In this document: piece by piece, positions 3,362 through 62,665 of the stretch | How positions within the stretch are numbered: position 1 is the stretch's first letter | Layout of the letters: each line of letters opens with the position of its first letter | NCBI GenBank assembly: GCA_965198095.1 | Contig: OZ240239.1 | Coordinates: forward strand, 1,018,816-1,082,815 | Length of the DNA stretch: 64,000 bases | Source: Candidatus Latescibacterota bacterium | GTDB lineage: Bacteria; Latescibacterota; UBA2968; GCA-2709665 | Direction of reading: 5' to 3' | Position numbers and translations under genes: made by a program | The notes under the pieces: model-generated | Told to the model about the DNA's origin: nothing | Database searches by the model: none | Seen by the model: the letters and a program-made list of their open reading frames with translations, nothing else

Positions 3362-3615
3362 GGCTCAAGGTCCTCCGGGCCCGCGGTTCGGACCGCGTCC
3401 CCCTTGCCGGACGAGATCGGTCGTCGCGGTTGTGGGACGCGCATAACATAGCTGCCCCGATTTGACCGGTCAACCGAAAATCACGGCGTGACGGCCTCGT
3501 CGGAACCGGAACGGCTGCCGGGCCGGCTGCCGGGCGACGGCCCGGGTTGATTTGAACGCAGGCCGGATGTACCGTATATTGATCCGCCCTGGACACCTTA
3601 CCCGTGGAGCCGTTG

Positions 3616-4404: not shown

Positions 4405-4515
4405 CGGAAAACGAGGACAAGGCGCGCCCGTCGCGCGACAGGTCGGCATCGCGGACTTCAGGGTCGCGCGTTGCGGGGCGTTTCTCGAAGCGATTGGCCG
4501 CCGCCTGGGTGGACG

Positions 4516-10334: not shown

Positions 10335-10433
10335 GTGCGTCAGCGCCAATGGTATCTGCGCGCCTACGTTCCCGGCATCTGCCGGCCTCCCACACCTCTG
10401 ATCGGAACGTTGAGACCAGGAAAGGAAGGCATC

Positions 10434-13400: not shown

Positions 13401-13667
13401 AACCTCCAACTCCTGTGGCTTGGCAATAATGCGTTGAGTGGTTCGATCCCGTCCGAATTGGGCAACCTGTCCAACCTTGTGCACCTGTTTCTTAACGATA
13501 ATTCGTCCTTGACGGGCCCACTTCCACAGAGCCTGACGGGGCTTAAAAAGCTACAGCACTTTCATTTTCATAACACGGGGCTTTGCGCGCCGCTCGATGG
13601 CGCATTTCAGACGTGGCTTCAGGGCATTGGAGACGCCAATGGCTCAAACTGCGCTTCCTCCGACTGA
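10434..13667 (+). CDS. Large secreted leucine-rich-repeat protein: N-terminal dockerin-like pair followed by four tandem plant-type LRR modules
   Basis: GTG start after GAAAGGAAGG. Signal peptide VRPFAIFILLAFVGQASA. DFDWDFDVDFADFLAFVSVFG and DMDGSGAIDFADFVTFAGVFG are dockerin-like. Each of the four modules starts DRDALVALYHATDGDSWTDKTNWLTD.DLSTWHGVTVSDGRVT.L (an LRRNT-like cap). The cap is followed by 24-residue repeats L.GNNLSGSIPSELGNLSNL and ends LTGTLPQSLTRLTNLK.FHFHNTGLC.PLD.AFQTWL.G.EDA.GS.C. Confidence 0.85.
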   Translation: MRPFAIFILLAFVGQASADPNGETGGSASTAVISSTRFPGDFDWDFDVDFADFLAFVSVFGKTSADAGYNPRMDMDGSGAIDFADFVTFAGVFGRTYTRPPWAADRDALIALYHATDGDSWTDRTNWLTDTDLWTWYGVRVSDGRVTRLQLDENNLSGSIPSELSDLSNLRGLWLYDNALSGPIPSELSNLSNLRGLSLGNNALSGSIPSELGNLSNLTSLWLYGNALSGSIPSELGNLSNLRSLLLSGNELSGSIPSELGNLSNLTSLSLGANALSGPIPSELGNLSNLLDLSLSNNTLSGSIPSELGNLSNLGSLWLHVNALSGPIPTELGNLSNLAQLLLNDNTSLTGTLPQSLTRLTNLKTFHFHNTGLCVPLDDAFQTWLKGMEDARGSTCPGGGTLSTDRDALVALYHATDGDSWTDKTNWLTDADLSTWHGVTVSDGRVTRVQLDGNNLSGTTPAALGNLSNLTDLLLNNNTSLTGTLPQRLTRLTNLKRLYFHNTGICARLEGAFQTWFQGIEDARGSTCPDRDALVALYHATDGDSWTHKTNWLTDTDLSTWHRVTVSDGRVTQLLLYRNNLRGSIPSELGNLSSLTDLLLDGNALSGSISSELGNLSRLEALWLSDNALSGPISSELGNLSSLRELRLSGNALSGSIPSELGNLSNLRSLSLAGNALNGSIPSELGNLSNLAFLHLQGNALSGSIPSELGNLSNLVFLHLHGNALSGSIPSELGNLPSLNSLLLNDNLHLTGTLPHSLTRLTNLRYFRFQNTGLCAPLDRAFQTWLHGIENTNGSNCSGEGTLSTDRDALVALYNSTDGDSWTDRANWLTDTDLSTWRGVTVSNGRVTRLGLDENNLSGSIPPALGNLSNLEALQLVGNALSGPILSELGNLSILETLVLSRNALSGPIPSELGNLSFLRFLLLSGNALSGPIPSELGNLSILRILELSANALSGPIPSELGNLSNLGDLFLDHNALSGPIPPALGNLSNLQLLWLGNNALSGSIPSELGNLSNLVHLFLNDNSSLTGPLPQSLTGLKKLQHFHFHNTGLCAPLDGAFQTWLQGIGDANGSNCASSD
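10745..13660 (+). repeat. Intragenic tandem repeats: 72-bp LRR units nested in four ~0.4-0.9 kb module duplications
   Basis: Near-identical DNA blocks (gggcaacctgtccaacctt...ggcaacgcgttgagtggttcgatcccgtccgaactg) recur dozens of times. Module starts are near 10745, 11646, 12019 and 12853. Confidence 0.8.
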
Positions 13668-29000: not shown

Positions 29001-29022
29001 CCTGAATAATTCATAACCTGAA

Positions 29023-29730
29023 TCATTCATAAAAAAGGTTAGGAAAGTCACTCGTACTCACCTTTTCTTGCCGCCCAAGAAAAGGTGACAAAAGAAGGGC
29101 GCCTGCCTGCCGCGCCCAACGCGGCGCAGGCAGGCCCCTCAAACGCCGGGGAGGCTCGGGCCGTGGCGACTCAGCCTCACTGGAAACGACCGGCGCCGCG
29201 AAAGGAATGAACTCCTCCCCCCGCCTGATGCCCACTGCGGGACCCGCCCCCACACCGCGAATTTCCATTCGCCCCCACATCCGCCCCCGCACCTGACCCC
29301 GTCCCACAGAGGGCCCCCTAACCCCTGGGGAGGAGAAACGCGGAAGCAGTTGGAGAGCCACAACGCCACGGCCGCGATGACATCTGGCCCGAATCACTCC
29401 TGAAATCTGCAAAATCTGCGTAAATACCGGGCCTTCCCGCGCCCTTCGATACACCCGAGAGACCGTTCGCCTATGATGAGCTGAGCATCTCGCTGATTGG
29501 GCACTCAGGGACACGGGGGCTTCTCTACTTGCCGCAACTCCTGCGACTCGCTCTTCGAAACCGGCCCCGTTCGTGTCGAGTGCCCGCCTGGGGGCAGGAG
29601 GGTGTCAACGATATAGTTAGGAAAGTCACTCATACTCACCTTTTCTTTGCTCGCTAAGGAGAGCACGATACGGCTGACACGATACACCCCTGTCATACGC
29701 GGAAATGATGTCAACGATTTACCGCTCCCG
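29023..29730. repeat. Mosaic intergenic repeat, copy A (BIME-like; sub-motifs X, Y, T plus a 35-bp direct repeat)
   Basis: Segment X (29130-29440) and segment Y (29441-29625) recur at 61141-61440 and 60990-61140. Y also recurs at 55424-55600. The tail T (29661-29730) recurs inverted at 60770-60836. ggttaggaaagtcactc.tactcaccttttctt occurs at both 29036 and 29626. Confidence 0.7.
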
Positions 29731-29858
29731 GTCATATCTCGCGATTCGCGTCGCTCGCAGACATGGGCGGGTGAACTTCCGTGATCTTTCGGCGTTTGCT
29801 CAGAGCTTCGGGAACCACGTGATTCGGTAACGCCAGACGTTGAGAAATGTAATCGGCC

Positions 29859-39396: not shown

Positions 39397-40485
39397 CTAC
39401 GGCGGACTCCAGACCTCTTTCAAGAGCCGGATCCAGTTTCCGGAGAGGATGTTTCGGACATCTTCGTCGGCGTATCCCCTGCGTTCGAAGATCGCTCTGA
39501 ACTTTTGGAGGTCTTGACTCGTGTTGAAGTCGCGCGGGGCCTGTTCGGTGCCGAAACCGGCGTCCACGTCGGTGCCGAGTCCGGCGTGGCGGGCGTTGCC
39601 CGCGACCTCGCAGACGTGGTCGATGTGATCGGCAACCGTCTCGAGGGTCGCTCTGGTTGTTTGTTTATACGGTGCGGTCGTGTGTTGCCACTCCGTGTCC
39701 AACATCCAGGCATCGAATGCGGAACCGATCACGCCCCCTCTTTCGATCACGGCCCTCAGCATGTCGTCGCTGAGCTGGCGCTGGTCGGGCACGAGGGCGC
39801 GGCAGTTGCAGTGGGAGGCGACCACGGGTCCGTCATAGACGTCGAGGAGCTCCCAGAAAGATTGGTCGGTCAGGTGGGTGAGATCGACGATGATGCCGAG
39901 TTCGCTGAAGGCGTCCAGGAGCGGCTTGGCGGGCGGGAGCAGGCCCCCCTCCGTGCCGCTGCCGTGGGCATAGCTGGTGACGCCGTAGTGAGAGAGGCTG
40001 GCGATGCGGAGTCCCGTGTCGTACCACTCCCGGACGTGATCGGGATCCAGGATCGGGTCGCATCCTTCGAGCGCGAGGACGAGGCCGATCGGCGTATCGG
40101 GCGCGGGGGCCTCCCAGCCGGCGACGACGTCATCCAGGTCCTGCGCGGACCGGACGATTCGGATCACGCCTTCTCTTTCCATGGCGTGGTAGTAGGCGGC
40201 GTGGCCGTAGGCGATGCCGTAACACTGCGCCTGGGTGTAGCACCCGATTCGGGTCCAGTTGTCTTTCGGGGCCAACCGGGCGGTCGCGGTCGCGATGACG
40301 AGCCCGACGTGGCCCTTGTGGAGCTCGTGGAATGTGGTCGTGCTGCTCCCGTAGGTCTCCATGACCTTCGGCGTGTCGTGGGTGCGCACGGTTGTCGCCG
40401 GCTGGGTGAGGTCGCGGTTGGCGTGCAGCGCGGTGAAGGCGAGGTCGAGATGACCGTCGGCGATGAGGATGGGGTTTTCAGTCAA
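39397..40485 (-). CDS. Membrane (renal-type) dipeptidase, peptidase family M19 - paralog 1
   Basis: ADGHLDLAF, a DLTHL-type metal site, ASHCNCRAL and GTDVDAGFG. ~75% identical to paralog 2. Confidence 0.85.
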   Translation of the reverse strand: MTENPILIADGHLDLAFTALHANRDLTQPATTVRTHDTPKVMETYGSSTTTFHELHKGHVGLVIATATARLAPKDNWTRIGCYTQAQCYGIAYGHAAYYHAMEREGVIRIVRSAQDLDDVVAGWEAPAPDTPIGLVLALEGCDPILDPDHVREWYDTGLRIASLSHYGVTSYAHGSGTEGGLLPPAKPLLDAFSELGIIVDLTHLTDQSFWELLDVYDGPVVASHCNCRALVPDQRQLSDDMLRAVIERGGVIGSAFDAWMLDTEWQHTTAPYKQTTRATLETVADHIDHVCEVAGNARHAGLGTDVDAGFGTEQAPRDFNTSQDLQKFRAIFERRGYADEDVRNILSGNWIRLLKEVWSPP

Positions 40486-40568
40486 GGGTCGCGTCTCCCC
40501 GATGCCTGGGCTGAAGGGTGTGTTCCTCGAAGATTGGATATGGACTGTTCGACGCTCTTCCTCAGCGG

Positions 40569-41669
40569 CTACGTGCTGCCTTCCTTCTCGCTCCAGGCGG
40601 CCTTCAAGAGCCGGATCCAGTTCCCCGACAGGATGTTCCCGACTTCTTCGTGCGAGTAGCCTCTGCGCGCGAAGATTTCCGCGAATTTCCGGAGATCCGC
40701 GATCGTGTTGAGGTCGCGCGGGGACTGCTCCGTGCCGTAGCCGCCGTCCAGGTCGGTTCCGATGGCGGCGTGGCGCGCGTTGCCGGCGAGGTCGCAGACG
40801 TGGTCGACGTGATCGGCGACCGTCTGGAGGGTCGCGTTCGTGATCTGTTCATAAGCCGGTCGCTCGTGGCCCCACTCCGGGTCCAGCATCCAGACGTCGA
40901 ACGCGGCACCGATCACGCCGCCCCGTTCGATGATCGACTTGATCATGTCGTCGCTGAGCTGGCGCTGGTTGGGGACGAGGGCGCGGCAGTTGCTGTGGGA
41001 GGCGAGCACGGGGCCGTCGTAGACGTCCAGGAGCTCCCAGTGAGACGGGTCGCTGAGGTGGGTGAGGTCGACGATGATGCCGGCCTCCCGGAAGGCGTCC
41101 AGGAGGGGCCTGGCCGTGGGCAGCAGGCCGCCCTCCGTACCGGTGCCGTGGGCGTAGCGGCTCACGCCGTAGTGTGTCAGGCCGGCCACGCGCACGCCCA
41201 GGTCGTACCACTCCCGAACCTGTTCGGGATCCCGAATGCCGTCGCAGCCTTCAAAGGCCAGCACCAGGCCGATCGGGGTGTCCGGGGCCGGATCTTCCCA
41301 GCTCGCGACGACCCGATCCAGGTCCTGAGCCGAGCGGACGATCCGGATCACGCCTTCCCGCTCCATCGCTTGATAGTAGGCGATGTGGCCCCTGACGACG
41401 CCGTAGCACTGGGTCTGGTCGTACATGCCGAGCCCGGTCCAGTTGTCCTTGGGCCCGACCTTGGCTGTCGCGGTCCCGAAGACGAGCCCGACGTGTCCCT
41501 TTCTGAGCTCGTGGAAACTGACCGTGCAGCTTCCGAAGGTCCGCATCACCGCCGGCGCATCGTGCGTGCGGATCGTGGCCGCCGGAACCGTGAGGTCGCG
41601 GTTGACCTGAAGGGCGCTGAAGGCGAGGTCGAGATGGCTGTCGGCGATCAGCGCGGGTCTGTCAGGCAT
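40569..41669 (-). CDS. Membrane dipeptidase M19 - paralog 2
   Basis: Colinear with paralog 1 (IADSHLDLAF...ASHSNCRAL...GTDLDGGYG). The start codon lies ~20 bp from tandem-repeat block 1. Confidence 0.85.
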   Translation of the reverse strand: MPDRPALIADSHLDLAFSALQVNRDLTVPAATIRTHDAPAVMRTFGSCTVSFHELRKGHVGLVFGTATAKVGPKDNWTGLGMYDQTQCYGVVRGHIAYYQAMEREGVIRIVRSAQDLDRVVASWEDPAPDTPIGLVLAFEGCDGIRDPEQVREWYDLGVRVAGLTHYGVSRYAHGTGTEGGLLPTARPLLDAFREAGIIVDLTHLSDPSHWELLDVYDGPVLASHSNCRALVPNQRQLSDDMIKSIIERGGVIGAAFDVWMLDPEWGHERPAYEQITNATLQTVADHVDHVCDLAGNARHAAIGTDLDGGYGTEQSPRDLNTIADLRKFAEIFARRGYSHEEVGNILSGNWIRLLKAAWSEKEGST

Positions 41670-41689
41670 AAGACCCTCGTTTCAAGAAA

Positions 41690-42500
41690 GGTGTAGGAGC
41701 CAACTCCGTTGGCGAAGCAAAAAGATTGCGGATTTGTTTTGCACTCATCCAATGGCCACTCATAGGGTCGGTAGAGGCGCACACCGCGATCAGATGGTTC
41801 GCCGTCGGGAGCCTGTCCTGAGCAAGCGTCAGCGAGTCGAAGGGACGGCTCCTACCGGATTATTGGGCCTATTGGATTCACCGATGTCATAACGTCCCAT
41901 ATCCGGTAGGAGCCAACTCCTGTTGGCGAAGCAAAAGATGGCGACTTGCTTTGCGCCGATCCAATAAGCCAACTCCGTTGGCGAAGCAAAAGATGGCGAC
42001 TTGCTTTGCGCCGATCCAATGGCCACCCATAGGGTCGGTAGAGGCGTACACCGCGATCAGATGGTTCGCCGTCGGGAGCCTGTCCTGAGCAAGCGTCAGC
42101 GAGTCGAAGGGACGGCTCCTACCGGATTATTGGGCCCAATGGATTCACCGATGTCATAACGTCCCATATCCGGTAGGAGCCAACTCCTGTTGGCGAAGCA
42201 AAAGATGGCGACTTGCTTTGCGCCGATCCAATAAGCCAACTCCGTTGGCGAAGCCGAAGATGGCGATTTGTTTTGCACCAGTCCAATGGCCACTCATGGT
42301 CGGTAGAGGCGTACACCGCGATCAGATGGTTCGCCGTCGGGAGCCTGTCCTGAGCAAGCGTCAGCGAGTCGAAGGGACGGCTCCTACCGGATTGTTGGGC
42401 CTAATGGATTCACCGATGTCATAACGTCCCATATCCGGTAGGAGCCAACTCCTGTTGGCGAAGCAATAGATGGCGATTTGTTTTGCGCCGATCCGATGGC
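41690..42500. repeat. Composite tandem repeat block 1 (three units of S ~55 bp plus L ~155 bp)
   Basis: The S unit is gagccaactcc(t)gttggcgaagc.aaagatggcga.ttg.tttgc.c.gatccaat. The L unit is ggccac.catagggtcggtagaggcg.acaccgcgatcagatggttcgccgtcgggagcctgtcctgagcaagcgtcagcgagtcgaagggacggctcctaccggattattgggcc.a.tggattcaccgatgtcataacgtcccatatccggtag. The block fills the whole interval between the paralog-3 stop and the paralog-2 start. Confidence 0.85.
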
Positions 42501-42502
42501 CA

Positions 42503-43627
42503 TCACTGCCACGCCTCCCTGAACAGCCGAACCGTGTTGCCGTGGGCGATCTTCGCGACGTCCTCCTCGCCATATCCCCGTTGACGCAGGATGTCCAGGA
42601 ACTTCTGCAGGTCGGCGATGGTGTCCATGTCGGTGGGCGCGTACTCTCGCCCGAACCCGCCGTCCAGGTCGGACCCGATGGCCACGTGATCGGCGTTTCC
42701 CGCGAGCTGGCAGATGTGATCGACGTGGTCCACGACGGCGTTCATGGGTCGCGTGGAAGCGGGCGGAACGCGGTCCGAGTCGATCCACGCCGGGTTGAGA
42801 AACCTTTCGACGAAGACGACGCCGATCACGCCGCCACGCTCGCAGAGTGTCTTGATCACGTCGTCACTCAAGAGGCGCTGAATCGGAACGAGGGCGCGGC
42901 AGTTGCAGTGGCTGGCGTGGATCGGTCCGTCCCAGCGGTCCAGGATCTGACGGAGGGCCAAGTCGGCGGCGTGGGTGACGTCCAGAACGATTCCGGCGGC
43001 GCGCAGCGCGTCCATCAGCGGAAATGCGGGGGGATAGAGCCCTCCGACGGTGCGCGTTCCGTGGCCGTAGGTGTTGGCCCCGTAGTGGGTGAGGGAGACG
43101 GCGCGGAGCCCGGCTTCCCACCAGTCTTCCACATTTTCCAGACCGAGGATCGGGTCGGCGCTCTCCATCGTGAGGATGAGGCCGATGGGCGTCTCAGGCG
43201 TCGGATGCGCCCACTCCGCGACAGAGGCATCCAGGTCCGCCACCGACTTGATGAACCGGATCTGCCCGTCTCGTTCCAGGGCGCGGTAGTAGGCCAAGTG
43301 GCCCATGGCCCGCGCGTATGCCGCGGCCTGCGTGCGGTCCGTATTGCCCGACGTCGGACCCGGCTCCTGCACCCGCGCCATGATCGTCCCGAGCGCGATG
43401 CCGACGTGTCCCTTCCGCATGTCGGGAAACGAGACCGTGGCGATGCCTTTGCCGACGTCGGCCCACGGATCGTGGCGGACCAGGACGGCTTCCGGGTCGG
43501 CGGTGGGCCCGAGGAGGAAACCGTCTTCCCGCTCGCGAAGGGTATCGACCGACTGGGTGAGATCGCGGCGGTGAAAGAGGGCGTTGTGCGCCAGGTCGAG
43601 GTGGCCGTCTATGATGAGGGTAGACAT
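42503..43627 (-). CDS. Membrane dipeptidase M19 - paralog 3
   Basis: IIDGHLDLAHN...ASHCNCRAL...GSDLDGGFG. More diverged from paralogs 1 and 2, and close to paralog 4. Confidence 0.85.
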   Translation of the reverse strand: MSTLIIDGHLDLAHNALFHRRDLTQSVDTLREREDGFLLGPTADPEAVLVRHDPWADVGKGIATVSFPDMRKGHVGIALGTIMARVQEPGPTSGNTDRTQAAAYARAMGHLAYYRALERDGQIRFIKSVADLDASVAEWAHPTPETPIGLILTMESADPILGLENVEDWWEAGLRAVSLTHYGANTYGHGTRTVGGLYPPAFPLMDALRAAGIVLDVTHAADLALRQILDRWDGPIHASHCNCRALVPIQRLLSDDVIKTLCERGGVIGVVFVERFLNPAWIDSDRVPPASTRPMNAVVDHVDHICQLAGNADHVAIGSDLDGGFGREYAPTDMDTIADLQKFLDILRQRGYGEEDVAKIAHGNTVRLFREAWQ

Positions 43628-43844
43628 AAAGCCGCCGGGAACGGGTACCGGGGACCCAAAACACGGGTACCGGGTACAGAAAGGCCGTTGTTCGTCGCTT
43701 GTCGTTCCGTCGTTCGCAGAAGTTGGATCACGAGACTACACGAAGCGCACGAAAAAATTGACAATGAATGTCGAACCGCGGAATACCGAATGTGGTGACA
43801 GCTGGACCACAGGCCACAGATTCCTTGTATCACAACCCCAACTC

Positions 43845-44875
43845 ACGCCCCATATCCGGTAGGAGCCAACTCCGTTGGCGAAGCCGAAGATGGCCGTATA
43901 TTATGCCGCCTAGCCAATGGCCAACTCCTGTTGGCGAAGCAAGAGATAGCGATTTGTTTTGCGCCAGTCCAATGGCCACTCATAGGGTCAGTAGAGGCGT
44001 ACACCGCGATCAGATGGTTCGCCGTCGGGAGCCTGTCCTGAGCAAGCGTCAGCGAGTCGAAGGGACGGCTCCTACCGGATTATTGGGCCCAATGGATTCA
44101 CCGATGTCATAACGTCCCATATCCGGTAGGAGCCAACTCCGTTGGCGAAGCCGAAGATGGCGATTTGTTTTGCACTCATCCAATGGCCAACTCCGTTGGC
44201 GAAGCCGAAGATGGCCGTATATTATGCCGCCTAGCCAATGGCCACTCATAGGGTCAGCAGAGGCGCACACCGCGATCAGATGGTTCGCCGTCGGGAGCCT
44301 GTCCTGAGCAAGCGTCAGCGAGTCGAAGGGACGGCTCCTACCGGATTGTTGGGCCTAATGGATTCACCGATGTCATAACGTCCCAAATCCGGTAGGAGCC
44401 AACTCCGTTGGCGAAGCCGAAGATGGCCGTATATTATGCCGCCTAGCCAATGGCCAACTCCTGTTGGCGAAGCAAGAGATAGCGATTTGTTTTGCGCCAG
44501 TCCAATGGCCACTCATAGGGTCGGTAGAGGCGCACACCGCGATCAGATGGTTCGCCGTCGGGAGCCTGTCCTGAGCAAGCGTCAGCGAGTCGAAGGGACG
44601 GCTCCTACCGGATTATTGGGCCTAATGGATTCACCGATGTCATAACGTCCCAAATCCGGTAGGAGCCAACTCCGTTGGCGAAGCCGAAGATAGCGATTTG
44701 TTTTGCACTCATCCAATGGCCACTCATAGGGTCGATAGAGGCGTACACCGCGATCAGATGGTTCGCCGTCGGGAGCCTGTCCTGAGCAAGCGTCAGCGAG
44801 TCGAAGGGACGGCTCATACCGGATTGTTGGGCCTATTGGATTCACCGATGCCATCGTGATGCGAGGCAGAAAACC
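43845..44875. repeat. Composite tandem repeat block 2 (four L units interleaved with two S variants)
   Basis: Same S and L families as block 1. One S variant carries the AT-rich insert ccgtatattatgccgcctagcc. The block runs from ~220 bp upstream of paralog 3 to the stop codon of paralog 4. Confidence 0.85.
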
Positions 44876-44884
44876 TCGGATGAA

Positions 44885-46006
44885 TCACTGCCACGCATTC
44901 CTGAACAGGCGCAGCGTGTTGCCGTGGGCGATCTTGGCCACGTCTTCCTCACCGTATCCACGCCGTCTCAGGACGTCCAGGAAGTTCTGCAGGTCGGCGA
45001 TGGTGTCCAGGTCGCAGGGGGACTTCTCGCGTCCGAACCCGCCGTCCAGATCGGACCCGATGGCGACGTGATCGGCATTTCCGGTGAGCTGACAGATGTG
45101 GTCGACGTGCTCGACGATGGCGCTCATCGGTCGGGTGAGGCCGGGCGCGGGTCCGAACATGTGCACATTCGGGTTGACGAACGTTTCGGCGAAGACCATG
45201 CCGATCACGGCGTCGCGCTCGCAGAGCGCCTTGATCATTTCATCCGTCAACAGCCGCTGGACCGGGACGAGGGCGCGGCAGTTGCAGTGGCTGGCGTGGA
45301 CCGGTCCGTCCCAGTATTCCAGCAGCTGCCAGAAGACGAGGTCGGAGGCGTGGGTCACGTCCAGCAGGACGCCCGCGTCGCGCAGGGCGTCCAGGAGCGG
45401 GTATGCGGGGGTATAGAGTCCGCCTTCGGTGCCCGTGCCGTGGCCGTAGGTGTTGGCCCCGAAATGGGTGAGCGAGACGGATCGGAGCCCGGCTTTCCAC
45501 CAGTCTTCCACATTTTCCGGCCCGAGGATCGGGTCGGCCCCTTCCATGGTGAGGATCAGGCCGACCGGCGTCTCAGGCGTCGGATGCTCCCACTCGGCAA
45601 CAGAGGCATCGAGATCTTCCGCGGATTTGATGAACCGGACTTCGCCCTCCCGCTCCAGGGCCTGGTAGTAGGCCAGATGGGAAATCCCCTGCGCGTGGGC
45701 GACGGCCTGTGTTCGCACGGAGTTGTGGCTGTCCGGACCGGGCAGCTGGATGCGGGACATGATCGTAATCAGCCCGATGCCGACGTGCCCCCTTCGCATG
45801 TCGGGGAGAGAGACCGTGGGAACGCCGTGCTCCTTGTCTTTCCAAGCGTCTTCCTTGACGAGGACCGCTTCCGGATCGGCGGAGGGGCCGCGCAGGAGGA
45901 CGTCTTCCCGTTCGCGGAGGACCCTTGCAGGCTGCCTCTGGTCGCGGCGATTGAAGAGGCCGTTGAAAGCCAGGTCGAGGTGGCCGTCTATGATGAGGGT
46001 AGACAT
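44885..46006 (-). CDS. Membrane dipeptidase M19 - paralog 4
   Basis: IIDGHLDLAFN...ASHCNCRAL...GSDLDGGFG. The long antisense ORFs 39361-46279 (plus strand) are rejected. Confidence 0.85.
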   Translation of the reverse strand: MSTLIIDGHLDLAFNGLFNRRDQRQPARVLREREDVLLRGPSADPEAVLVKEDAWKDKEHGVPTVSLPDMRRGHVGIGLITIMSRIQLPGPDSHNSVRTQAVAHAQGISHLAYYQALEREGEVRFIKSAEDLDASVAEWEHPTPETPVGLILTMEGADPILGPENVEDWWKAGLRSVSLTHFGANTYGHGTGTEGGLYTPAYPLLDALRDAGVLLDVTHASDLVFWQLLEYWDGPVHASHCNCRALVPVQRLLTDEMIKALCERDAVIGMVFAETFVNPNVHMFGPAPGLTRPMSAIVEHVDHICQLTGNADHVAIGSDLDGGFGREKSPCDLDTIADLQNFLDVLRRRGYGEEDVAKIAHGNTLRLFRNAWQ

Positions 46007-46124
46007 AGAGCCGTTGGCAGCGGGTACCGGGGCACCAGAACACGGGTACCGGGTACCGAAAGGCCGTTGTCCGTCGCTTGTCGTTCCGTCATTCGCAAAA
46101 GTTGCATCACAAGCCTATCTCACA

Positions 46125-46435
46125 CCCCGCATCCGGTAGGAGCCAACTCCTGTTGGCGAAGCAATAGGTGGCGACGTGGGGTGCGCCGATCCAATGGCCG
46201 TCTCCCTGTTGGCGAAGCAATAGGTGGCGACGTGGGGTGCGCCGATCCAATGGCCGTCTCCCTGTTGGCGAAGCAATAGGTGGCGACGTGGGGTGCGCCG
46301 ATCCAATGGCCGTCTCCCGACGGCGACGCAATAGGTGGCGACGTGGGGTGCGCCGATCCAATGGCCGTCTCCCGACGGCGACGCAAAAGATGGCGATTTG
46401 TTTTGCACCGATCCGATGGCGCCGGTTTTGGTGGT
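46125..46435. repeat. Tandem repeat block 3 (about five ~58-bp S-like units)
   Basis: ctgttggcgaagcaataggtggcgacgtggggtgcgccgatccaatggccgtctcc repeats three times, followed by two diverged copies. It starts with the same atccggtaggagccaactcc junction as blocks 1 and 2. Confidence 0.8.
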
Positions 46436-46795: not shown

Positions 46796-47180
46796 AAAAG
46801 AAACGGCACCCACAAGAACCCTTGACGGTCTTTAGGAACCTGCTTATCGTAATCTCGACACAGATCCGCGCACCGCTCGTTATTCTTCACACGAAAGGGG
46901 GATGCGAAATGAACCTCATTTATCTGATCGCGGCGTCCCCGGGTGGTTTTATGTAGACTCTGATTCACAGGGTCAAACGATTCAGGCTTTGATTCATGCC
47001 AAAGGCAGAGTTGGAGGTCGTCCGAGGGGGCGGCCTCCTTTCTTTTTGCTTCGAGCCAAGGATGCGCAGCATCCCGTCGATTCCGCTCGGGCAGGCGCAA
47101 TGTTCCTTGGGCGGTGGGACCCCGTCCAAATCGCCGGTTTGACCCCAGGTCGGGGCGCCACCGCAAACAAGCAAGAGGGA

Positions 47181-47957
47181 ATGTTTATGAATTTCGATCT
47201 TGAGGCTTCAGAATTCCAACGCGCCTGGCTCCAGCGTGCTTTGGGAGCGTTTCACGAAGATGGATGGTTCACTGACATCCTGTATCGCGCCAAAGGTGGC
47301 AAGGAGGCCAATGTTTACTGCTGCAGGGCGAGCCCGGAGACAGGTTACGAATTCGTCGCCGCGAAGGTATACCGGCACCGTAGACTTCGATCCATGAAAA
47401 ATTACGCCGTGTACCGGGAGGGCCGGCATGTCACAAGCGATAGGCGTGAACTCCGGGCCTTGAAGAAGAAGACAAGGATAGGCAAAGCTGTTGAAGATGG
47501 CGCCTGGATAAGACACGAGTACGATACGATGACGCGACTTTACGATATGGGGGCAAGTGTGCCCGAACCTCTGGCAAGAGGCAGCACTGCGCTTTTGATG
47601 GAATATATAGGAGACGAACACGGAGCGGCGCCCCTTTTTCACGAGGTTGCCCTCAAAGAAGACCAGGCCCAGGACTTTTTCGACCGCTTGATGTACAACG
47701 TTGAGATCTTTCTGGCCCGCGACCTGGTACACGGAGACCTGTCAGCTTATAATGTCCTCTATTGGGATGACGATTTCAGGATCATTGACTTCCCTCAGGC
47801 AGTCGATCCGGTATTGAATCCCAACGCCCTCTCCCTGTTGGCACGTGATGTCGAGCGGCTATGCCAGTATTTCTCTCGGTACGGCGTGGAGGCCAACTAC
47901 GTTGATCTTGCAGCAGATCTGTGGGAGAGATTTAGTCGAAGGGAGCTCGCCGTGTGA
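47181..47957 (+). CDS. RIO-type serine protein kinase
   Basis: GKEANVY (the ATP-binding loop), the catalytic loop LVHGDLSAYNVLY and the metal-binding IIDFPQAVD are all RIO1-family signatures. An RBS AAGAGGGA precedes the ATG at 47181. Confidence 0.7.
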   Translation: MFMNFDLEASEFQRAWLQRALGAFHEDGWFTDILYRAKGGKEANVYCCRASPETGYEFVAAKVYRHRRLRSMKNYAVYREGRHVTSDRRELRALKKKTRIGKAVEDGAWIRHEYDTMTRLYDMGASVPEPLARGSTALLMEYIGDEHGAAPLFHEVALKEDQAQDFFDRLMYNVEIFLARDLVHGDLSAYNVLYWDDDFRIIDFPQAVDPVLNPNALSLLARDVERLCQYFSRYGVEANYVDLAADLWERFSRRELAV

Positions 47958-53355: not shown

Positions 53356-53646
53356 ATGAAGCGCGATGAGTTGAAGATGCGACTCACCAGGAATCGGCCG
53401 ATGATCCCTGTGAGCATTCGCATGCCGGAGGACGTCATTGAAGATCTCAAGCGAATCGCCCCTCAATTGGGATTCTCCGGATACCAGCCGCTCATGCGAG
53501 TCTACACAGGCCAAGGTCTCCGTCAGGATCTTGCGCGACTGCAAGATCACCCTGAACTCGACCGATTCGTCGAAAGTCTGCAGAACCACGGTGTAGACGC
53601 GAAAACGATCGAACAGGCCATGGCCGATGTGAAGCAGCCTACCTGA
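53356..53646 (+). CDS. BrnA/CopG-like ribbon-helix-helix antitoxin, orphan
   Basis: MIPVSIRMPEDVIEDLKRIAPQLGFSGYQPLMRVY matches the BrnA antitoxin pattern. An RBS GAGAGGAAGAG precedes the ATG. No BrnT-like toxin ORF sits upstream. Confidence 0.5.
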   Translation: MKRDELKMRLTRNRPMIPVSIRMPEDVIEDLKRIAPQLGFSGYQPLMRVYTGQGLRQDLARLQDHPELDRFVESLQNHGVDAKTIEQAMADVKQPT

Positions 53647-54235
53647 CTTCCGAGACCCGAATCTCTCCCGACTTCGGACGCTCGTCTGCCGCCGCAATAT
53701 CGCCGTGAGGCGCACCCAGGACGTGGTATCCTCCATCCACCTGAAGCACCTCCCCGGTGACGCCACTCGAAAGGTCGCTCAGGAGGAAGAGCGCAGCCTT
53801 CCCGACTTCCTCCTGACTCACGTTTCTGCGCAGGGGCGCGTTCTCTGCGTAGGCGTGATGAAATCCTCCGAATCCCTTCACACCTCGGGCGGACGCCGTG
53901 CTGATCGGTCCGGCTGAAATGGCGTTCACCCTGATGTTTCCGGGCCCCAATTCGAAAGCCAGCTGCCTGACGGCGTGCTCGAGCGCGGCCTTCGCGGTTC
54001 CCATGACGTTGTAGTGGGAGAACACCCTCTGCGAGGCCAGGAAGGTCAGCGTGAGGATCGATCCACCCTCAACCATCGATGCGGAGGCAGATCGACTCAT
54101 CTTCAGAAAAGAAAACATGCTGACATCGAGCGCCGTCCGAAAAGCCACGCGGGATGTGTCGCCGAACCGGCCTCGCAACGCTTCGGGGGGCGCAAAGGCG
54201 ATCGAGTGATAACCCCCACGCGCAACCATCATCAA
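53639..54235 (-). pseudogene. fabI: Enoyl-ACP reductase FabI, C-terminal ~190 aa only (N-terminal Rossmann part absent)
   Basis: YNVMGTAKAALEHAVRQLAFELGPGNIRVNAISAGPI...LRRNVSQEEVGKAALFLLSDLSSGVTGEVLQVDGGYH is colinear with FabI residues ~85-260. Only ~100 bp lie upstream before the next gene. Confidence 0.55.
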
Positions 54236-54340: not shown

Positions 54341-55297
54341 TCATTTCCACCGGGATTTCAAATCCGCCTCGATCTCCGGCCAGGGGACGTGCAGTTTTGC
54401 CGCTCCGACCATCAAGGCATACACAACGCCGCTGAATTCCTCCGGGACTCCCGCCTCCTGGGTCAGCGCCCTCACAAACTCGGCCGATTCCTCACCCACC
54501 TTCTTGCAGATCTCGTTTTTGTCCCCCAAAAGCTTTGACGTAGACGAGCCTGTCGGGGCTTTGGCGACGGCAGCAATCCGGCGGTACTCCTCCTCCCACG
54601 GATTGAGTATTTTCCGCCCGATCAATGAGATGTCGCTGAACCGCACGACTTCGGCCACTTTCAGGCCTGCTCTGGACATTGCGCTATCGGGTGATTCGTC
54701 TCCCCGATACACGACCTCGATACACCAGTCGTGGGTGCCTTCCGCGACCGTATGCTCAGTGTCACCCGTGTATGCAACGACGCTGAATTGAAGATCTCCG
54801 GATCGGAATCGTTGCGACAGGTACTGACGCGACGACCGTTCATACTTCTTGTTTACGGCAATGGACACCGTCAGGGGCGCATCTGGCATCTGCCCTTCGC
54901 GATTCAACAGACAGAGGGCGGGCCGATTGAACTGAGCACTTGGATCGAACCAGTCATAGGTATTGAGGACCCCAAGCGGAGCGCTGCCCGCGCCCAACAT
55001 GTACTCGTCGAACAGGTCGTCTCCGGTTAGACCGTACGCCACTTCGCCACGTTGGATGCAATCATCCACGCGTTGGGGCACATCCTCTCCCCGGGCTGAC
55101 ACGATGTCAAGGAGCCCCTCGCTCTGGTCGGTCCGATCGAACTTGCCTGTGTCGCGGACGCCGATTTCCCTGAGCAGACCGTTCACATACTCATTCAGAC
55201 CCCTGTTCTTCGGAATGTAGAGTTTCGCCCTCGGCTCAGGCACGAATAGACCGATAGCCTCTCGAAACACGTTCTTCTCCTCTATAGTGATTTCCAT
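54341..55297 (-). CDS. Putative fusion of HisG-like ATP phosphoribosyltransferase (N) with HisE/MazG-like phosphoribosyl-ATP pyrophosphohydrolase (C)
   Basis: N-terminal: KLYIPKNRGL...LLDIVSARGEDVPQRVDDCIQRGEVAYGLTGDDLFDEY resembles the HisG N-terminus. C-terminal: KKVGEESAEFVRALTQEAGVPEEFSGVVYALMVGAA resembles HisE. The start is uncertain (Met at 55297, 55315 or 55339). Confidence 0.4.
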   Translation of the reverse strand: MEITIEEKNVFREAIGLFVPEPRAKLYIPKNRGLNEYVNGLLREIGVRDTGKFDRTDQSEGLLDIVSARGEDVPQRVDDCIQRGEVAYGLTGDDLFDEYMLGAGSAPLGVLNTYDWFDPSAQFNRPALCLLNREGQMPDAPLTVSIAVNKKYERSSRQYLSQRFRSGDLQFSVVAYTGDTEHTVAEGTHDWCIEVVYRGDESPDSAMSRAGLKVAEVVRFSDISLIGRKILNPWEEEYRRIAAVAKAPTGSSTSKLLGDKNEICKKVGEESAEFVRALTQEAGVPEEFSGVVYALMVGAAKLHVPWPEIEADLKSRWK

Positions 55298-55423
55298 CTC
55301 ATTGAGGCGTTGCATTGATTCGACTTCCTGCCTTTCCATCCGTATCGTGCTCTCGTTGGTCGCCCCGTTCGTGTCGACTGCCCGGGCCCAGAGGCGAGGG
55401 GTGTATCGAGAGACGCGGTTCAC

Positions 55424-55600
55424 CTGACAGGCTTTCCCGCGCCCTTCGATACACCCGCGAGACCATTGGGTTATGATCGGCTGAACATCTCGCTGATTGG
55501 GCACTCAGGGACGCGGGGTCTTTGCACTTGTCGCAACTCCTGCGACTCTCTCTTCGAACCCGGACGCCTTCGTGACCGCCGGCGAGGCAGAGCCGGACTC
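55424..55600. repeat. Mosaic repeat copy C (segment Y only, right arm degenerate)
   Basis: gcgcccttcgatacacccgcgagacc...gctgaacatctcgctgattgggcactcagggacgcggggtctttgcacttgtcgcaactcctgcgactctctcttcgaa matches Y of copies A and B. Confidence 0.65.
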
Positions 55601-56499: not shown

Positions 56500-59328
56500 C
56501 TAACGGATTTGAAGCGTGAACAGCCTGGCCTTTTCGAGGGCGAGTCTGAATTTCAGGACGCGGCCGGAGTGTTCGGAGAGTCGGCGGCCGCTCCAAGACG
56601 GTTTGTGGTCAACCTCGTCTCCGAAGAACGGATCGGAGTCCTCGAGCGTGTATCCCCTGACGGGCGTGCCGTCCTCGTCCTGAAGCTCCACGCGAATCCG
56701 CCCGCCCGATTCGACCTGGGCGTTGACGAGGAGATCGGTGCCGTCAAACCGGATCGGGTGGGTGGTGAGCTCACCGGCAACGTCCAGCGGCGCCGCGTAG
56801 GCCAGTCGTCCGGGTCGGATGCGGGTAAACATGGGAAAAGAGCAGTTGGACATTCCGTGTCGCCACAGGTTTTCCCAGCTGACGAAGAAGGGCGTCTCGC
56901 TGTAGTGGGGGAACCGGGCCTGGAACGCTGCCAGTGTCGGATACCGGGTCGCCGTGGTGTGATTGTGGTGGGCGTTTCTGGCCTCGTTTCGGAGCAGCCA
57001 GACGTCATTGCCTTCATCGTCCTTGGCGGGCAGATAACTCCGTGACTGGAAGTACATGATATAGGGGAAATCGCTGTTCTCCTCGCCGGGCTTCACCAGC
57101 GGGGCCCGGCGATGGGTGAAGCGGTGCCAGTGAAGGAGGTCCCGCGACCACATGAGCTCCGGGTACTGAATGAGGTGATCGGTCGGATAGCTCCTGAGCT
57201 CGGCGACGTAGACTTCGCCGCTGTCGACGGCAACGCCCGCGGTCGCGGTCGTGCTGAGCACGGAGCGCCCTTGCTCGGCGGCCGGCAGGTCGACGATCAT
57301 CCCCATGTTGTAGAACTGCATCCCCAGGGGGTCGAACTCATCGGTGCCCACGCAGAACCGTTTATGGAAATGGATTCCGTCGTCGGTCCAGATGACCGCG
57401 AGGTGGCGGAGCGGCCCCTGGTGGTTGTCCCACGGCATGCACTGAGGCGGGTACGGCGGAGAGTTCGGACGGTAGTACCAGAAGACGGTCGACTTGTCCC
57501 GGAGCTCCACTTGATGGCGAATGGTCTCGCTGCTGTGCATCAGGTCCATTCCGGGCCCGAGATGGATGAGGGGTCTGTTGCTCAGGAACTGGTATTCGTT
57601 GTCCCCTTTGTAGACCATCGGATAGTAGCTTTCCGCTACCGGCCTGAATCCCAGCGTCTCCCTGGAGGCCTCGAAGTCGTCCGGCCAGGCAAAATCGACC
57701 TTCGGGTTGTGGCCGCCCGCGATGAAGCCCATGAAGACCCTGTCCATGTCCACCGGCCCGTCCCTCTCGGGATCGTAGACACCGAACCTGTAGTTCGACG
57801 TGTTCACGCCGAGCGTCATGGCCGAGGTGACGTCTTTCGGAGGTTCCGTCCGGGTCAGATCCTCGAACGTTCCCAGGATGTTGTTGGCCTTCGAGCCGTG
57901 GAACTCAACCCTTCCCAATTCCGGTTTCTCCCAGTGGATCCCGTCTTTCGAAGTGGCCAGGCAGACGTAATGAGGGCGCTGCAGGTCTTCCGGGTAGAGC
58001 TCGAAGACCTGGGCCGCGGATTCGTCGATCCCTTCGGGAGGGGGGAGGCGGCCGCCCGGCAGCACACCGGGAACGGCGAGCATCAGATGATCCGTGTTGC
58101 GCTCCGCCTCCGGCCTCGGGTCGTTGAGGATGGCATAGCCGTGATCGAACGGCGTCCCGTCGTAGTCGAACTCCTTGACCGATGTTCCGGCGTCGAGCAA
58201 CCTTCGAAGGAGCTTTCCGTATCCGGTGCCGAGCGGATCTGTCTTTTCACCGGAGGCTGACGTCCGGCGTAGGGTGATCGGGAGTGCTTCATCGCCCTGA
58301 ATCCAGTCTCCGGACGGCGCTTCGGAACCGGTTTCGTCCTCGCTGCTTGCGAGATCATCCGCCAGGACGTGCCATCCAAAGGCCTTGCGAAAGGCGTGGG
58401 GGCGGTACATGGCTCGTTCGAAGCCGTATTCCATCTTGAACAGGCCTTCCGATTCATCGAACGCCGTCGACGTCGTCCACATCATCTCGAACTCCCAGGG
58501 TTTGTCCTTGACGATCGCGGGCCCGTTTTGGCCAGGATCGTAGCTCATCGGCCAGAAATCGATCCCTTCGGACGCCTCGAACAGCCAGTCGTCGACCATG
58601 TATTGGAGGGACTGTCCCAACCGGAGCGGCGGCTCGGGTTGCACATCGGGCCCGATGACTTCCTTCCAGAATTTGCGGACCATGCAGGGTCCGAACGGCC
58701 GGCCGTCCTCCAGGAGCCGGATGCGGATCCAGTACTCGCCGCGGTCCCAGCCGGCGTGGTTGAACGTGAGGGTCTGACGCGCTTCGGTCAGGTCCAGGTC
58801 GACCGGCTCCACGAGGGATTCCGACCCCTTCCGTTCCGTCACGTCGATGCGGACCCGGCACGCAGGGACCCGCTCCGTCTTGAGCCGGATCGTGAGCGGG
58901 ATTTCATCGTAGTCGACGCAGACCGGCCTGAGGGGTGCGCATTCGATAAAACCGGGTGGAAAGTCGTGCCGAAGCCGTCCCTTTCCACTGTTGGCGTAGA
59001 ACGCATCCTGATCCAGGTCGGCGGACTCGGTGACGATGGATGATCCGTCGTTCAGGATCGAAACTTCAAAGGTCGTGACCCCCATCTCGTAGTGCAGGGA
59101 GGATGCGCGTCCCTCGATCTGTTCCCAGGCACCGTCATCCATCAACGGGTACCGCATCCTCACTTCGGCGCGTTTTCCGTCGACCTGAAGGTCGCCGTCC
59201 ATCTCCAACGCGTACCCGCTGGGCTGCGTGACCTTCACTCTGGCGGAGAGCTTTCCCCAGTGACGTGGATCACCCGGCAGCTGGAGCTTGAGGACCTGCG
59301 TCGTGTAGTCTGCCTGAATCACCTGCAT
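56500..59328 (-). CDS. Large (942 aa) hypothetical protein with glycoside-hydrolase-like beta-propeller blades and a C-terminal beta-sandwich
   Basis: Blade-like motifs CLATSKDGIHWEKPELG and AVIWTDDGIHFHK. A GH32/GH43-type C-terminal tail GGRIRVELQDEDGTPVRGYTLEDSDPFFGDEVDHKPSW...LSEHSGRVLKFRLALEKARLFTLQI. Antisense ORFs 56218-58260 are rejected. Confidence 0.4.
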   Translation of the reverse strand: MQVIQADYTTQVLKLQLPGDPRHWGKLSARVKVTQPSGYALEMDGDLQVDGKRAEVRMRYPLMDDGAWEQIEGRASSLHYEMGVTTFEVSILNDGSSIVTESADLDQDAFYANSGKGRLRHDFPPGFIECAPLRPVCVDYDEIPLTIRLKTERVPACRVRIDVTERKGSESLVEPVDLDLTEARQTLTFNHAGWDRGEYWIRIRLLEDGRPFGPCMVRKFWKEVIGPDVQPEPPLRLGQSLQYMVDDWLFEASEGIDFWPMSYDPGQNGPAIVKDKPWEFEMMWTTSTAFDESEGLFKMEYGFERAMYRPHAFRKAFGWHVLADDLASSEDETGSEAPSGDWIQGDEALPITLRRTSASGEKTDPLGTGYGKLLRRLLDAGTSVKEFDYDGTPFDHGYAILNDPRPEAERNTDHLMLAVPGVLPGGRLPPPEGIDESAAQVFELYPEDLQRPHYVCLATSKDGIHWEKPELGRVEFHGSKANNILGTFEDLTRTEPPKDVTSAMTLGVNTSNYRFGVYDPERDGPVDMDRVFMGFIAGGHNPKVDFAWPDDFEASRETLGFRPVAESYYPMVYKGDNEYQFLSNRPLIHLGPGMDLMHSSETIRHQVELRDKSTVFWYYRPNSPPYPPQCMPWDNHQGPLRHLAVIWTDDGIHFHKRFCVGTDEFDPLGMQFYNMGMIVDLPAAEQGRSVLSTTATAGVAVDSGEVYVAELRSYPTDHLIQYPELMWSRDLLHWHRFTHRRAPLVKPGEENSDFPYIMYFQSRSYLPAKDDEGNDVWLLRNEARNAHHNHTTATRYPTLAAFQARFPHYSETPFFVSWENLWRHGMSNCSFPMFTRIRPGRLAYAAPLDVAGELTTHPIRFDGTDLLVNAQVESGGRIRVELQDEDGTPVRGYTLEDSDPFFGDEVDHKPSWSGRRLSEHSGRVLKFRLALEKARLFTLQIR

Positions 59329-60713: not shown

Positions 60714-60769
60714 ACGGTCCCTCCGCTCAAGCCGGGCGGCGCTCGGTCGATCTCGTCACTTCATACCGG

Positions 60770-61440
60770 GAGCGGTAAATCGTTGACATCATTTCCGCGT
60801 ATGACAGGGGCGTATCGTGTCAACCGTATCGTGCGCTCCCTGGTCACTCCGGTGTGGCACCGGCAGCTTGCTGCCGGTGGGAAATGACGAGCGAATTTTG
60901 TCATACTTGGAGCAATGAATTTTTCACGGGCGGGCGAGCCGCCCGTGGCACACGCGATTAAGACCTTGTGTATTGTCGATTCGGTGATGATCAGCTGAGC
61001 ATCTCGCTCATCGGGCACTCAGGGACACGGGGCTTCTCCACTTGTCGCAATTCCTGCGACTCTCACTTCTCACTTCAAACCCGGCCCCGTTCGTGTCGAG
61101 TGCCCGAGCCTGGGGGTAGGGTGTCAACGATATCGTCAGGCAGGCCCCTCAAACGCCGGGGGGGCTCGGGCCGTGGCGACTCAGCCTCACTGGAAAGTAT
61201 TGGCGCCGCGAAAGGAATGAACTCCTCCCCCCGCCTTATGCCCGCTGCGGGACCCGCCCCCACGCCGCGAATTTCCATTCGCCCCCACATCCGCCCCCGC
61301 ACCTGACCCCGTCCCACAGAGGGCCCGGACCCCTGGGGAGAAGAAACGCCAAAGCAGCTAGGGAGCCGAAACGCCACGGCCGCGATGACATCTGGCCCGA
61401 ATCACTCGTGAAATCTGAACAATCTGCGTAAATACTGGGC
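60770..61440. repeat. Mosaic repeat copy B (T inverted, then Y, then X)
   Basis: 60770-60836 is the reverse complement of 29661-29730. 60990-61140 matches Y. 61141-61440 matches X, including ggccgtggcgactcagcctcactggaaa...gaatttccattcgcccccacatccgcccccgcacctgaccccgtcccacagagggcc. Confidence 0.7.
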
Positions 61441-61536
61441 TTTCCAGTTTTTTGCACCAGGACAAAGTTTTTTTACTCAAATTGGATCACTGATTGTTCT
61501 TCATAAAATGATGGAAATTTTCAGCAAATATTCAGG

Positions 61537-61965
61537 TTAATAACTCATATCGCTCTGACGGGCTTCCTTGTTTATGACCAGGCAACCCGCCATGATGTCG
61601 TGCAGCCCCTGTTTTCTCTTCGTGAATGCGACCATGAGAAAGCCGATGAAAATGATCAGTGCAGAGACAAACTTGCTGAAATGTCGTCCCGAAGCCTTCC
61701 CGAAGCCGATGCGAGTTCCATCGAGGTCGGTGACCTTTATCCCAAGCGCCATTTTGCCCGGTGTCGCCTGCTTGTTCGATGACTCGAAAGATGCAAAATA
61801 GATCCAGCCGACCAATAAGCTTACGACGACCGCAAGGGGCTCCAATTCTGCTTCGGCGCCATGAGGGCGTCCAAGAATGAAGCCCGCCATCATGCCGATG
61901 GCAGTGGTGATCAGACTATCGATCAGTGCCGCCGCCACTCTTTTCCAAAACCCCGCGTACGTCAT
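61537..61965 (-). CDS. RDD-family membrane protein
   Basis: The RDD motif context (GFWKRVAAALIDSLI...GLHDIMAGCLVI) and three TM segments. Confidence 0.65.
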   Translation of the reverse strand: MTYAGFWKRVAAALIDSLITTAIGMMAGFILGRPHGAEAELEPLAVVVSLLVGWIYFASFESSNKQATPGKMALGIKVTDLDGTRIGFGKASGRHFSKFVSALIIFIGFLMVAFTKRKQGLHDIMAGCLVINKEARQSDMSY

Positions 61966-62551: not shown

Positions 62552-62665
62552 GTGATGAAGGAGTCCCCGATGTGAGCTCATTGGCGCTTCTCTCTGACAG
62601 GTTGCGGATCCACGGCGGCCTGAATCCCGGAACGTCCTGTTTCGCTCGCGATTGCCCGTATATCC

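Follow-up and report, generated by a model that had tools for sequence, protein, structure and literature searches.

The HisG-HisE fusion gene and its domains

We analysed a stretch of 64,000 nucleotides from a Candidatus Latescibacterota bacterium (assembly GCA_965198095.1, contig OZ240239.1, positions 1,018,816 to 1,082,815 of the forward strand; hereafter the window), which carries on its minus strand a gene that joins HisG (ATP phosphoribosyltransferase) and HisE (phosphoribosyl-ATP pyrophosphohydrolase) in one polypeptide, here termed HisGE. The open frame spans 55504 to 54341. A preliminary description had run the gene from an ATG at 55339 to 54341; its end stands, but its start gives way to the GTG at 55270-55268, 69 nt inside that ATG. 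We place the gene at 54341..55270 because homologues are nearly all 309 aa long with the N-terminus M[FY]RE.IG, whose counterpart in the window, VFREAIG, begins at the GTG, and because a GAGGAG lies 6 nt before this codon. The reading frame of the window copy is intact, and all motifs quoted in the preliminary description occur in its translation (Table 1).

Table 1. Features of the HisG-HisE gene in the window, and gene orders around HisGE in distant loci (IGPD, imidazoleglycerol-phosphate dehydratase; HisRS, histidyl-tRNA synthetase; PRPP, phosphoribosyl pyrophosphate)
Feature	Position	Strand	Remarks
HisG-HisE fusion gene	54341..55270	-	309 codons and stop, GTG start; length and N-terminus agree with the family; translation verified
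Shine-Dalgarno-like GAGGAG	55277..55282	-	6 nt upstream of the GTG; read from the sequence, presumed function
HisG-like catalytic core, residues 1-222	54605..55270	-	two alpha/beta domains, without the HisG_C regulatory domain
HisE domain (PRA-PH, MazG-like all-alpha), residues 223-309	54341..54604	-
RGEDVP motif, residues 60-65	55076..55093	-	aligned to canonical RxxDIP (C. jejuni HisG alignment)
YGLTGDDLFDE family signature	55004..55036	-	aligned to canonical G-I-x-G-x-[DN]-x-L-x-E
Variant PRPP-binding loop EVVYRGDESPDSAM	54677..54718	-	from alignments; canonical D-L-V-S-[ST]-G-x-T-L
GEESAE, first HisE metal-binding motif	54479..54496	-	from alignment; equivalents of MtHISN2 Glu214 and Glu217
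EEFSGVVY, second HisE motif	54419..54442	-	Glu234 and Tyr240 equivalents kept; Asp237 equivalent is Gly, codon 54428-54430
L005 (Woesearchaeota GCA_047602755.1)			[His_biosynth+PRA-CH] -> HisGE -> IGPD
L036			HisGE -> HisI
L037			HisGE -> HisD (histidinol dehydrogenase)
L038			HisGE -> HisRS
L041			HisGE -> IGPD -> HisRS
L055			HisI -> HisGE -> HisRS
L059			HisGE -> IGPD
L061			HisGE -> HisI
L062			HisGE -> HisD -> HisRS

The 309-aa protein matches the Pfam families HisG (PF01634; 27.2 bits, gathering score 25.5) and PRA-PH (PF01503; 27.7 bits, gathering score 21.3), and no other family was detected in Pfam up to E = 10, HisG_C (PF08029) being among those without a match. A single-sequence phmmer search of the PDB sequences returned only noise, and a profile of 21 family members was needed to obtain matches. 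With this profile we found HisE of B. cereus (1yvw, E = 6e-13), along with plant HISN2 and HisIE, and HisG (4yb5, E = 3.6e-8) over profile positions 15-253, almost the entire core. The significant HisG match on which the preliminary description had let its proposal hang was obtained twice, in Pfam and in 4yb5. An AlphaFold2 model computed from 57 family members has a mean predicted local distance difference test (pLDDT) score of 90.5, and each of the 50 best PDB structures that Foldseek matched to this model is an ATP phosphoribosyltransferase. The predicted HisG part is the two-domain type-II binding-protein-like catalytic fold and resembles HisG more than it does the other proteins of that fold; the predicted all-alpha domain at the C-terminus is nearer to HisE than to generic MazG, superposing on HisE at 1.1 Å over 86 residues. 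Both domains are truly HisG and HisE by homology and fold, and the fusion that the preliminary description had offered as a possibility is confirmed by the Pfam scores, the family-profile matches and the fold comparison.

A small and divergent family

Searching 5.8 billion proteins by word index, we obtained 122 relatives, of which nearly all carry both Pfam domains and measure about 309 aa. When 1.84 billion cluster representatives were searched exhaustively with phmmer, there were only 147 hits at E <= 1e-3, including 40 at E <= 1e-30. Because these hits are few and the standalone ones match Pfam HisG weakly (57 bits for P0166), the phmmer search appears not to have reached ordinary HisG. 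The HisGE family is a small, rare and deeply divergent HisG lineage. Its core also occurs alone, as proteins of about 200 aa, and in other fusions: with HisI (P0118, P0196, P0211), with HisI and HisE (P0188), and with a class-I/II aminotransferase (HisC-like) and a HAD phosphatase in proteins of about 760 aa (P0162, P0171). These alternative fusions are in effect Rosetta-stone links to the histidine pathway. The family sequences are named "hypothetical protein" or "phosphoribosyl-ATP diphosphatase" in the databases, and no NCBIfam model spans the HisG-HisE architecture.

The fusions covered in reviews of the histidine pathway involve hisD, hisNB, hisHF/HIS7, hisIE and HIS4, and none includes hisG (PMC1963479, PMC10138114, PMC8305728). 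Our full-text literature search for a HisG-HisE or other hisG fusion returned only the C. glutamicum hisEG operon, a label of an E. coli HisG point mutant and noise, in keeping with the impression in the preliminary description that this fusion order had not been reported. The parts are ordinary, but the HisG-HisE architecture is not; the HisG-HisI, HisG-HisI-HisE and HisG-HisC-HAD fusions seem to be undescribed as well.

Each half can be compared with a known form. The short-form HisGS enzymes, which work with HisZ (Psychrobacter arcticus, Lactococcus lactis, Thermotoga maritima), are about 20% identical to HisGE and have the loop D-L-V-S-T-G-x-T-L, whereas HisGE has E-V-V-Y-R-G followed by an insertion, carries HisE fused at its C-terminus and has no HisZ nearby, none having been seen in the 64-kb window. 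In the long-form HisG of E. coli, M. tuberculosis and C. jejuni the extension is the ACT-like, histidine-binding HisG_C; in HisGE it is instead the helical bundle of HisE. The K-K-x-G-E-E-x-x-E and E...Y motifs of monofunctional HisE (B. cereus 1yvw, M. tuberculosis 3c90) and of the corresponding half of HisIE and plant HISN2 are conserved in HisGE. Unlike these proteins, in which HisE is free or fused to HisI, HisGE joins it to HisG, and in the window copy the Asp of E-x-x-D is replaced by Gly.

Conserved residues and selection

Throughout the family the HisG part conserves PKN.GL, RGED[VI]P, YGLTGDDLFDE, NTYDW.D, N.KY, Y.GDTE, D.C.E.VY.G and RFSDI.LIG, and its catalytic features K21, R60, D63, the glutamate of GDTE and D..C.E.VY.G are kept. 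Among 101 family members the R of RGEDVP is present in 99 and the D in 97, while the Y, both G and three D of YGLTGDDLFDE are invariant. Arg56 of P. arcticus HisGS is the leaving-group arginine (PMC9734150), and the alignment suggests that the Arg of RGEDVP is equivalent to the leaving-group Arg of the canonical RxxDIP. The PRPP loop of the window copy reads E-V-V-Y-R-G-D-ESPDS-A-M; it retains the Gly and the acidic residue but differs in its pattern of Ser/Thr. Its five inserted residues hold two Ser that are invariant in the bacterial clade (copies 59-99% identical), and the archaeal members keep G-G-x-[TS] in this loop.

In the HisE part, the window copy has the equivalents of Glu214, Glu217, Glu234, Thr197, Lys210 and Tyr240 of MtHISN2, and three of the four acidic metal ligands of E-x-x-E ... 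E-x-x-D are present. Both glutamates of the first motif are nearly universal in the family (E284 in 99/101 and E287 in 98/101, in the numbering of a 332-aa protein). Asp237 of MtHISN2 ligates a metal site that the authors of that structure hold to be catalytically relevant, and Glu214 and Glu217 are also ligands (PMC8102479). At the Asp237 position the Poribacteria copies have Asp; Gly is found in the window, in Latescibacterota and Opitutales copies and in P0068 (hereafter Gly-type copies).

Compared with eight other copies of the bacterial clade, the window gene has a ratio of nonsynonymous to synonymous divergence (dN/dS) of 0.05-0.12 in its HisG part and of 0.03-0.08 in its HisE part, with dS between lineages saturated (>= 1) in these comparisons; for the HisE part of two Gly-type copies, L014 and L017, the ratio is 0.07. 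Both domains are under strong purifying selection.

Genomic context

The distant members of the family, 34-50% identical to the window copy, come from Woesearchaeota, Nanoarchaeota and other archaeal metagenome-assembled genomes (MAGs), mostly DPANN. In 14 of 21 distinct distant loci a his gene (hisI, hisA/F, hisB or hisD) or hisS lies directly beside HisGE (Table 1), and at L060 and further loci HisI, IGPD, HisD or HisRS adjoins it. The fusion directly upstream of HisGE in L005 (8926-9999), a 357-aa protein of His_biosynth and PRA-CH (HisA/F-HisI), belongs to a very compact DPANN his cluster. Full-length HisRS with its anticodon-binding domain is encoded downstream of HisGE in L008, L038, L041, L055, L057, L062, L063, L064, L067 and L068. 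Short-form HisG usually works with HisZ, an inactive paralogue of HisRS that activates HisGS, and by this analogy the adjacency of HisGE and HisRS in the archaeal loci may be more than co-regulation.

Most copies of the bacterial clade stand alone among unrelated genes, their neighbours including an AAC(3)-like acetyltransferase, methyltransferases, PhyH dioxygenases and alcohol dehydrogenase. All-against-all clustering of the flanking open reading frames (ORFs) revealed synteny within lineages only, and no partner gene common across contexts. P0068, a Gly-type copy with 61% identity, is followed by methionyl-tRNA synthetase (MetRS), a 134-aa HisI without a HisE domain and PRPP synthetase; L051/L052 have the same gene order but a HisG-only version of 230 aa.

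Besides HisGE, the only pathway-related gene in the 64-kb window is a weak His_biosynth (HisA/HisF-family) ORF at 3604-4404 (+; 89.7 bits), followed by an AIRS/AIRS_C ORF at 4471-5550 (+). This pair of a His_biosynth and an AIR-synthase-related ORF is no standard his operon and lies 50 kb from HisGE. At Rfam gathering thresholds the window contains only four tRNAs, and no T-box or leader. We rejected a role in defence or as part of a mobile element, as the gene and four neighbouring ORFs have no PADLOC match and tblastn found no match in plasmids or phages.

Probable horizontal transfer of HisGE

In a rough, midpoint-rooted neighbour-joining tree of the HisG core, the bacterial clade is a single crown group within a grade of archaeal sequences, most of which are fused. 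Forms with HisG only are found here and there in the bacterial clade, a pattern that points to secondary loss of HisE. Degraded versions of the gene in this clade include two, at L031 (10001-10687) and L032 (10001-10684), that look like intact HisG-only genes of 227-228 aa, and one at L034 (10011-10767), whose alignment breaks into two pieces around a mid-gene gap of about 168 bp.

The window HisGE shares 79-87% identity with over 40 clusters, and in data with one genome per species copies of about 80% identity occur in MAGs labelled Poribacteria and Latescibacterota (80-83% in these two), Gemmatimonadota and Chloroflexota; the copy of an Opitutales MAG is 67% identical. Ribosomal protein S1 of the window, among the 120 matches listed, has one match at 99% (on an 803,759-bp contig), the next at 74% and then none above 58%, the latter coming from Gemmatimonadota and Latescibacteria MAG proteins. 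The bacterial-clade gene was found in at least eight unrelated genomic contexts, with a G+C fraction of the flanks from 0.46 to 0.60, and at the Opitutales locus L030 the gene itself has 0.54 against 0.46 in its flanks. Because HisGE is far more conserved than S1 and has a patchy distribution, these sequence comparisons make horizontal transfer of HisGE into this bacterium likely. The transfers are not recent, since dS between lineages is saturated.

Cross-phylum transfer is partly unsafe when read from MAG labels alone, as 17 loci among L013-L033 are mutually syntenic yet labelled Latescibacterota, Gemmatimonadota or Chloroflexi, which points to inconsistent MAG taxonomy or mis-binning. The labels being not fully reliable, we base the argument for transfer on the distinct contexts, the G+C contrast and the comparison with S1. 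Many of the bin names (SB066x, IRC4 and PNGco) are those of sponge-metagenome bins. A distribution limited to sponges was rejected because syntenic relatives of 61% identity (L046-L048) are found on JGI metagenome contigs without a sponge-MAG label.

Proposed function and alternative explanations

We regard it as probable, taking both parts of the proposal together, that HisGE is a bifunctional enzyme, a short-form ATP phosphoribosyltransferase and phosphoribosyl-ATP pyrophosphohydrolase from an old, mostly archaeal (DPANN) fusion lineage, and that the bacterial sub-clade arose within that archaeal lineage and spread horizontally among several phyla, including many lineages of sponge symbionts, with the window holding one standalone copy. 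The proposal draws on the homology and fold of the domains, the family-wide linkage to his genes, the purifying selection and the signs of horizontal transfer that we observe. In the window copy, the HisG half would convert ATP and PRPP to phosphoribosyl-ATP (PR-ATP) and pyrophosphate, and the HisE half would hydrolyse PR-ATP to phosphoribosyl-AMP and pyrophosphate. Catalysis by HisG is reversible, with product release as the limiting step; hydrolysis by HisE is irreversible, and proximity channelling has been demonstrated for HisIE (PMC10242683). HisE tethered to HisG would clear PR-ATP at its source, the fusion would set the two activities at 1:1, and PR-ATP might, by analogy with HisIE, be passed on by proximity channelling. 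The four-helix bundle of HisE would fill the place that the histidine-sensing HisG_C holds in long-form HisG, and because of this replacement histidine feedback is probably different or absent in HisGE. The solved HisE and HISN2 structures are dimeric (PMC8102479).

Several observations weigh against this proposal. The NCBIfam equivalog TIGR00070 (HisG) matches with 26.3 bits, under its cut-off of 75.75, and TIGR03188 (HisE) with 38.3 bits, slightly under its cut-off of 42.7; since both match only below their cut-offs, we judge the protein to be of a divergent HisG lineage and no standard orthologue. Canonical S/T-G-x-T is missing from the PRPP loop, which has a 5-residue insertion specific to the bacterial clade. 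The equivalent of Asp237 is Gly in the window and 43 of the 101 family members and Asp in 56. Among the flanking ORFs there is no his gene near the window HisGE or near most bacterial-clade copies, and the patchy distribution and variable context of the family suggest an accessory gene. Finally, some members of the clade (L031, L032, L051/52) have lost the HisE domain, which is thus dispensable in some hosts.

In the main alternative, HisG would be active and the Gly-type HisE catalytically dead, serving as a dimeriser or activator in the manner of HisZ, with a separate HisE or HisIE at another place in the genome carrying out step 2. Short-form HisG normally requires a partner protein (PMC9734150), and the loss of a metal ligand to Gly, its alternation with Asp among close relatives, which suggests that the ligand is not strictly needed, and the occurrence of HisE-less derivatives in the clade would all agree with this explanation, as would a HisE dN/dS of about 0.05, by which the domain must still do something. 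However, the three acidic ligands and the Thr, Lys and Tyr of the substrate site are near-invariant in Gly-type copies, which would be unexpected for a scaffold, and the Gly-type P0068 lies two genes from a HisI that has no HisE domain of its own. We consider a dead HisE rather unlikely.

A related scenario, which we hold to be unlikely, is that the bacterial clade is an accessory ATP phosphoribosyltransferase, spread by horizontal transfer, that evades histidine feedback, having neither HisG_C nor HisZ, with the Gly-type HisE as a HisZ-like, non-catalytic activator or dimeriser; sponge symbionts could then overproduce histidine or a derivative of it. Sponges, as animals, cannot synthesise histidine.

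The enzyme might also have left histidine synthesis in bacteria and become a phosphoribosyltransferase-pyrophosphatase for some other nucleotide or base, used in making a secondary metabolite or modified nucleotide, its gene spreading among symbionts as an accessory one. Its standalone position in variable neighbourhoods beside tailoring-type enzymes, the clade-specific insertion that changes the PRPP loop and a patchy distribution shaped by horizontal transfer are consistent with such a change. Yet no neighbour is conserved across contexts, the sole conserved bacterial context contains hisI and prs, the residues shared with the archaeal members in his operons are near-invariant, and defence-system models, plasmids and phages gave no match, so that repurposing appears distinctly unlikely. 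Another periplasmic-binding-fold domain joined to a generic MazG-type nucleoside triphosphate pyrophosphatase, the fallback of the preliminary description, or else a decaying pseudogene, to which the marginal single-sequence Pfam and NCBIfam scores and the lack of a single-sequence PDB match might have pointed, is refuted by the profile matches, the AlphaFold2 and Foldseek comparisons and the dN/dS evidence of purifying selection, and is highly improbable.

Other features of the window

Directly downstream of HisGE lies a gene for a FabI-like enoyl-acyl carrier protein reductase (53639-54235, -), which covers only positions 76-236 of adh_short_C2 and is truncated at its 5' end. Contig L001, which is 99% identical, contains 3.4 kb more downstream of HisGE (L001 11047-14428), in which there are small ORFs, DUF433 and DUF4932 as well as the first part of a 284-aa adh_short gene; because of this extra segment, we conclude that the window bears a deletion that cuts the FabI-like gene. 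This variable region has a further indel at window positions 62650-62655, where the window is without about 1.5 kb (L001 658-2172) encoding a NUDIX hydrolase and a PNP_UDP_1 nucleoside phosphorylase.

A dispersed intergenic repeat occurs at 29010-29740 and 60760-61540, with about 310 bp in common at about 92% identity, and a 146-bp piece of it (55430-55574; 86% identity), including the hairpin GTCGCAACTCCTGCGAC, lies in the 328-bp spacer upstream of HisGE. L001 contains more copies; candidate identities are a miniature inverted-repeat transposable element (MITE), a repetitive extragenic palindromic (REP)-like element or a regulatory element. Two genes upstream of HisGE, a 942-aa ORF (56500-59328, -) has no Pfam or PADLOC match; its DNA is conserved in L001, and a gene of 942 aa is called there at the matching place. 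Elsewhere the window encodes a eukaryote-like leucine-rich-repeat protein of 1110 aa (10335-13667, +) with a DNA repeat period of 72 nt, a RIO1-type kinase (46902-47957, +) and, at 39400-46300, a block of tandem paralogous ORFs with 78-90% DNA identity and no Pfam match.

Implications for the histidine pathway

The product of hisG catalyses the committed step of histidine synthesis, which is under allosteric control. Like the known fusions hisIE, hisNB, hisHF/HIS7 and HIS4, HisGE unites consecutive or related steps of the pathway in one polypeptide; unlike them, it links step 1 to step 2, with HisE taking the place of the committed step's regulatory module. It raises the questions of whether a short-form HisG can work without HisZ when tethered to HisE, how flux is controlled without a histidine-binding module, and whether PR-ATP is channelled. 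Together with the HisG-HisI, HisG-HisI-HisE and HisG-HisC-HAD proteins, HisG-HisE broadens the his pathway as a model for evolution by gene fusion. Reconstructions of the metabolism of DPANN and sponge-symbiont genomes that are based on equivalogs would score hisG as missing and hisE as present. The high identity of bacterial HisGE across phyla points to selection in shared habitats.
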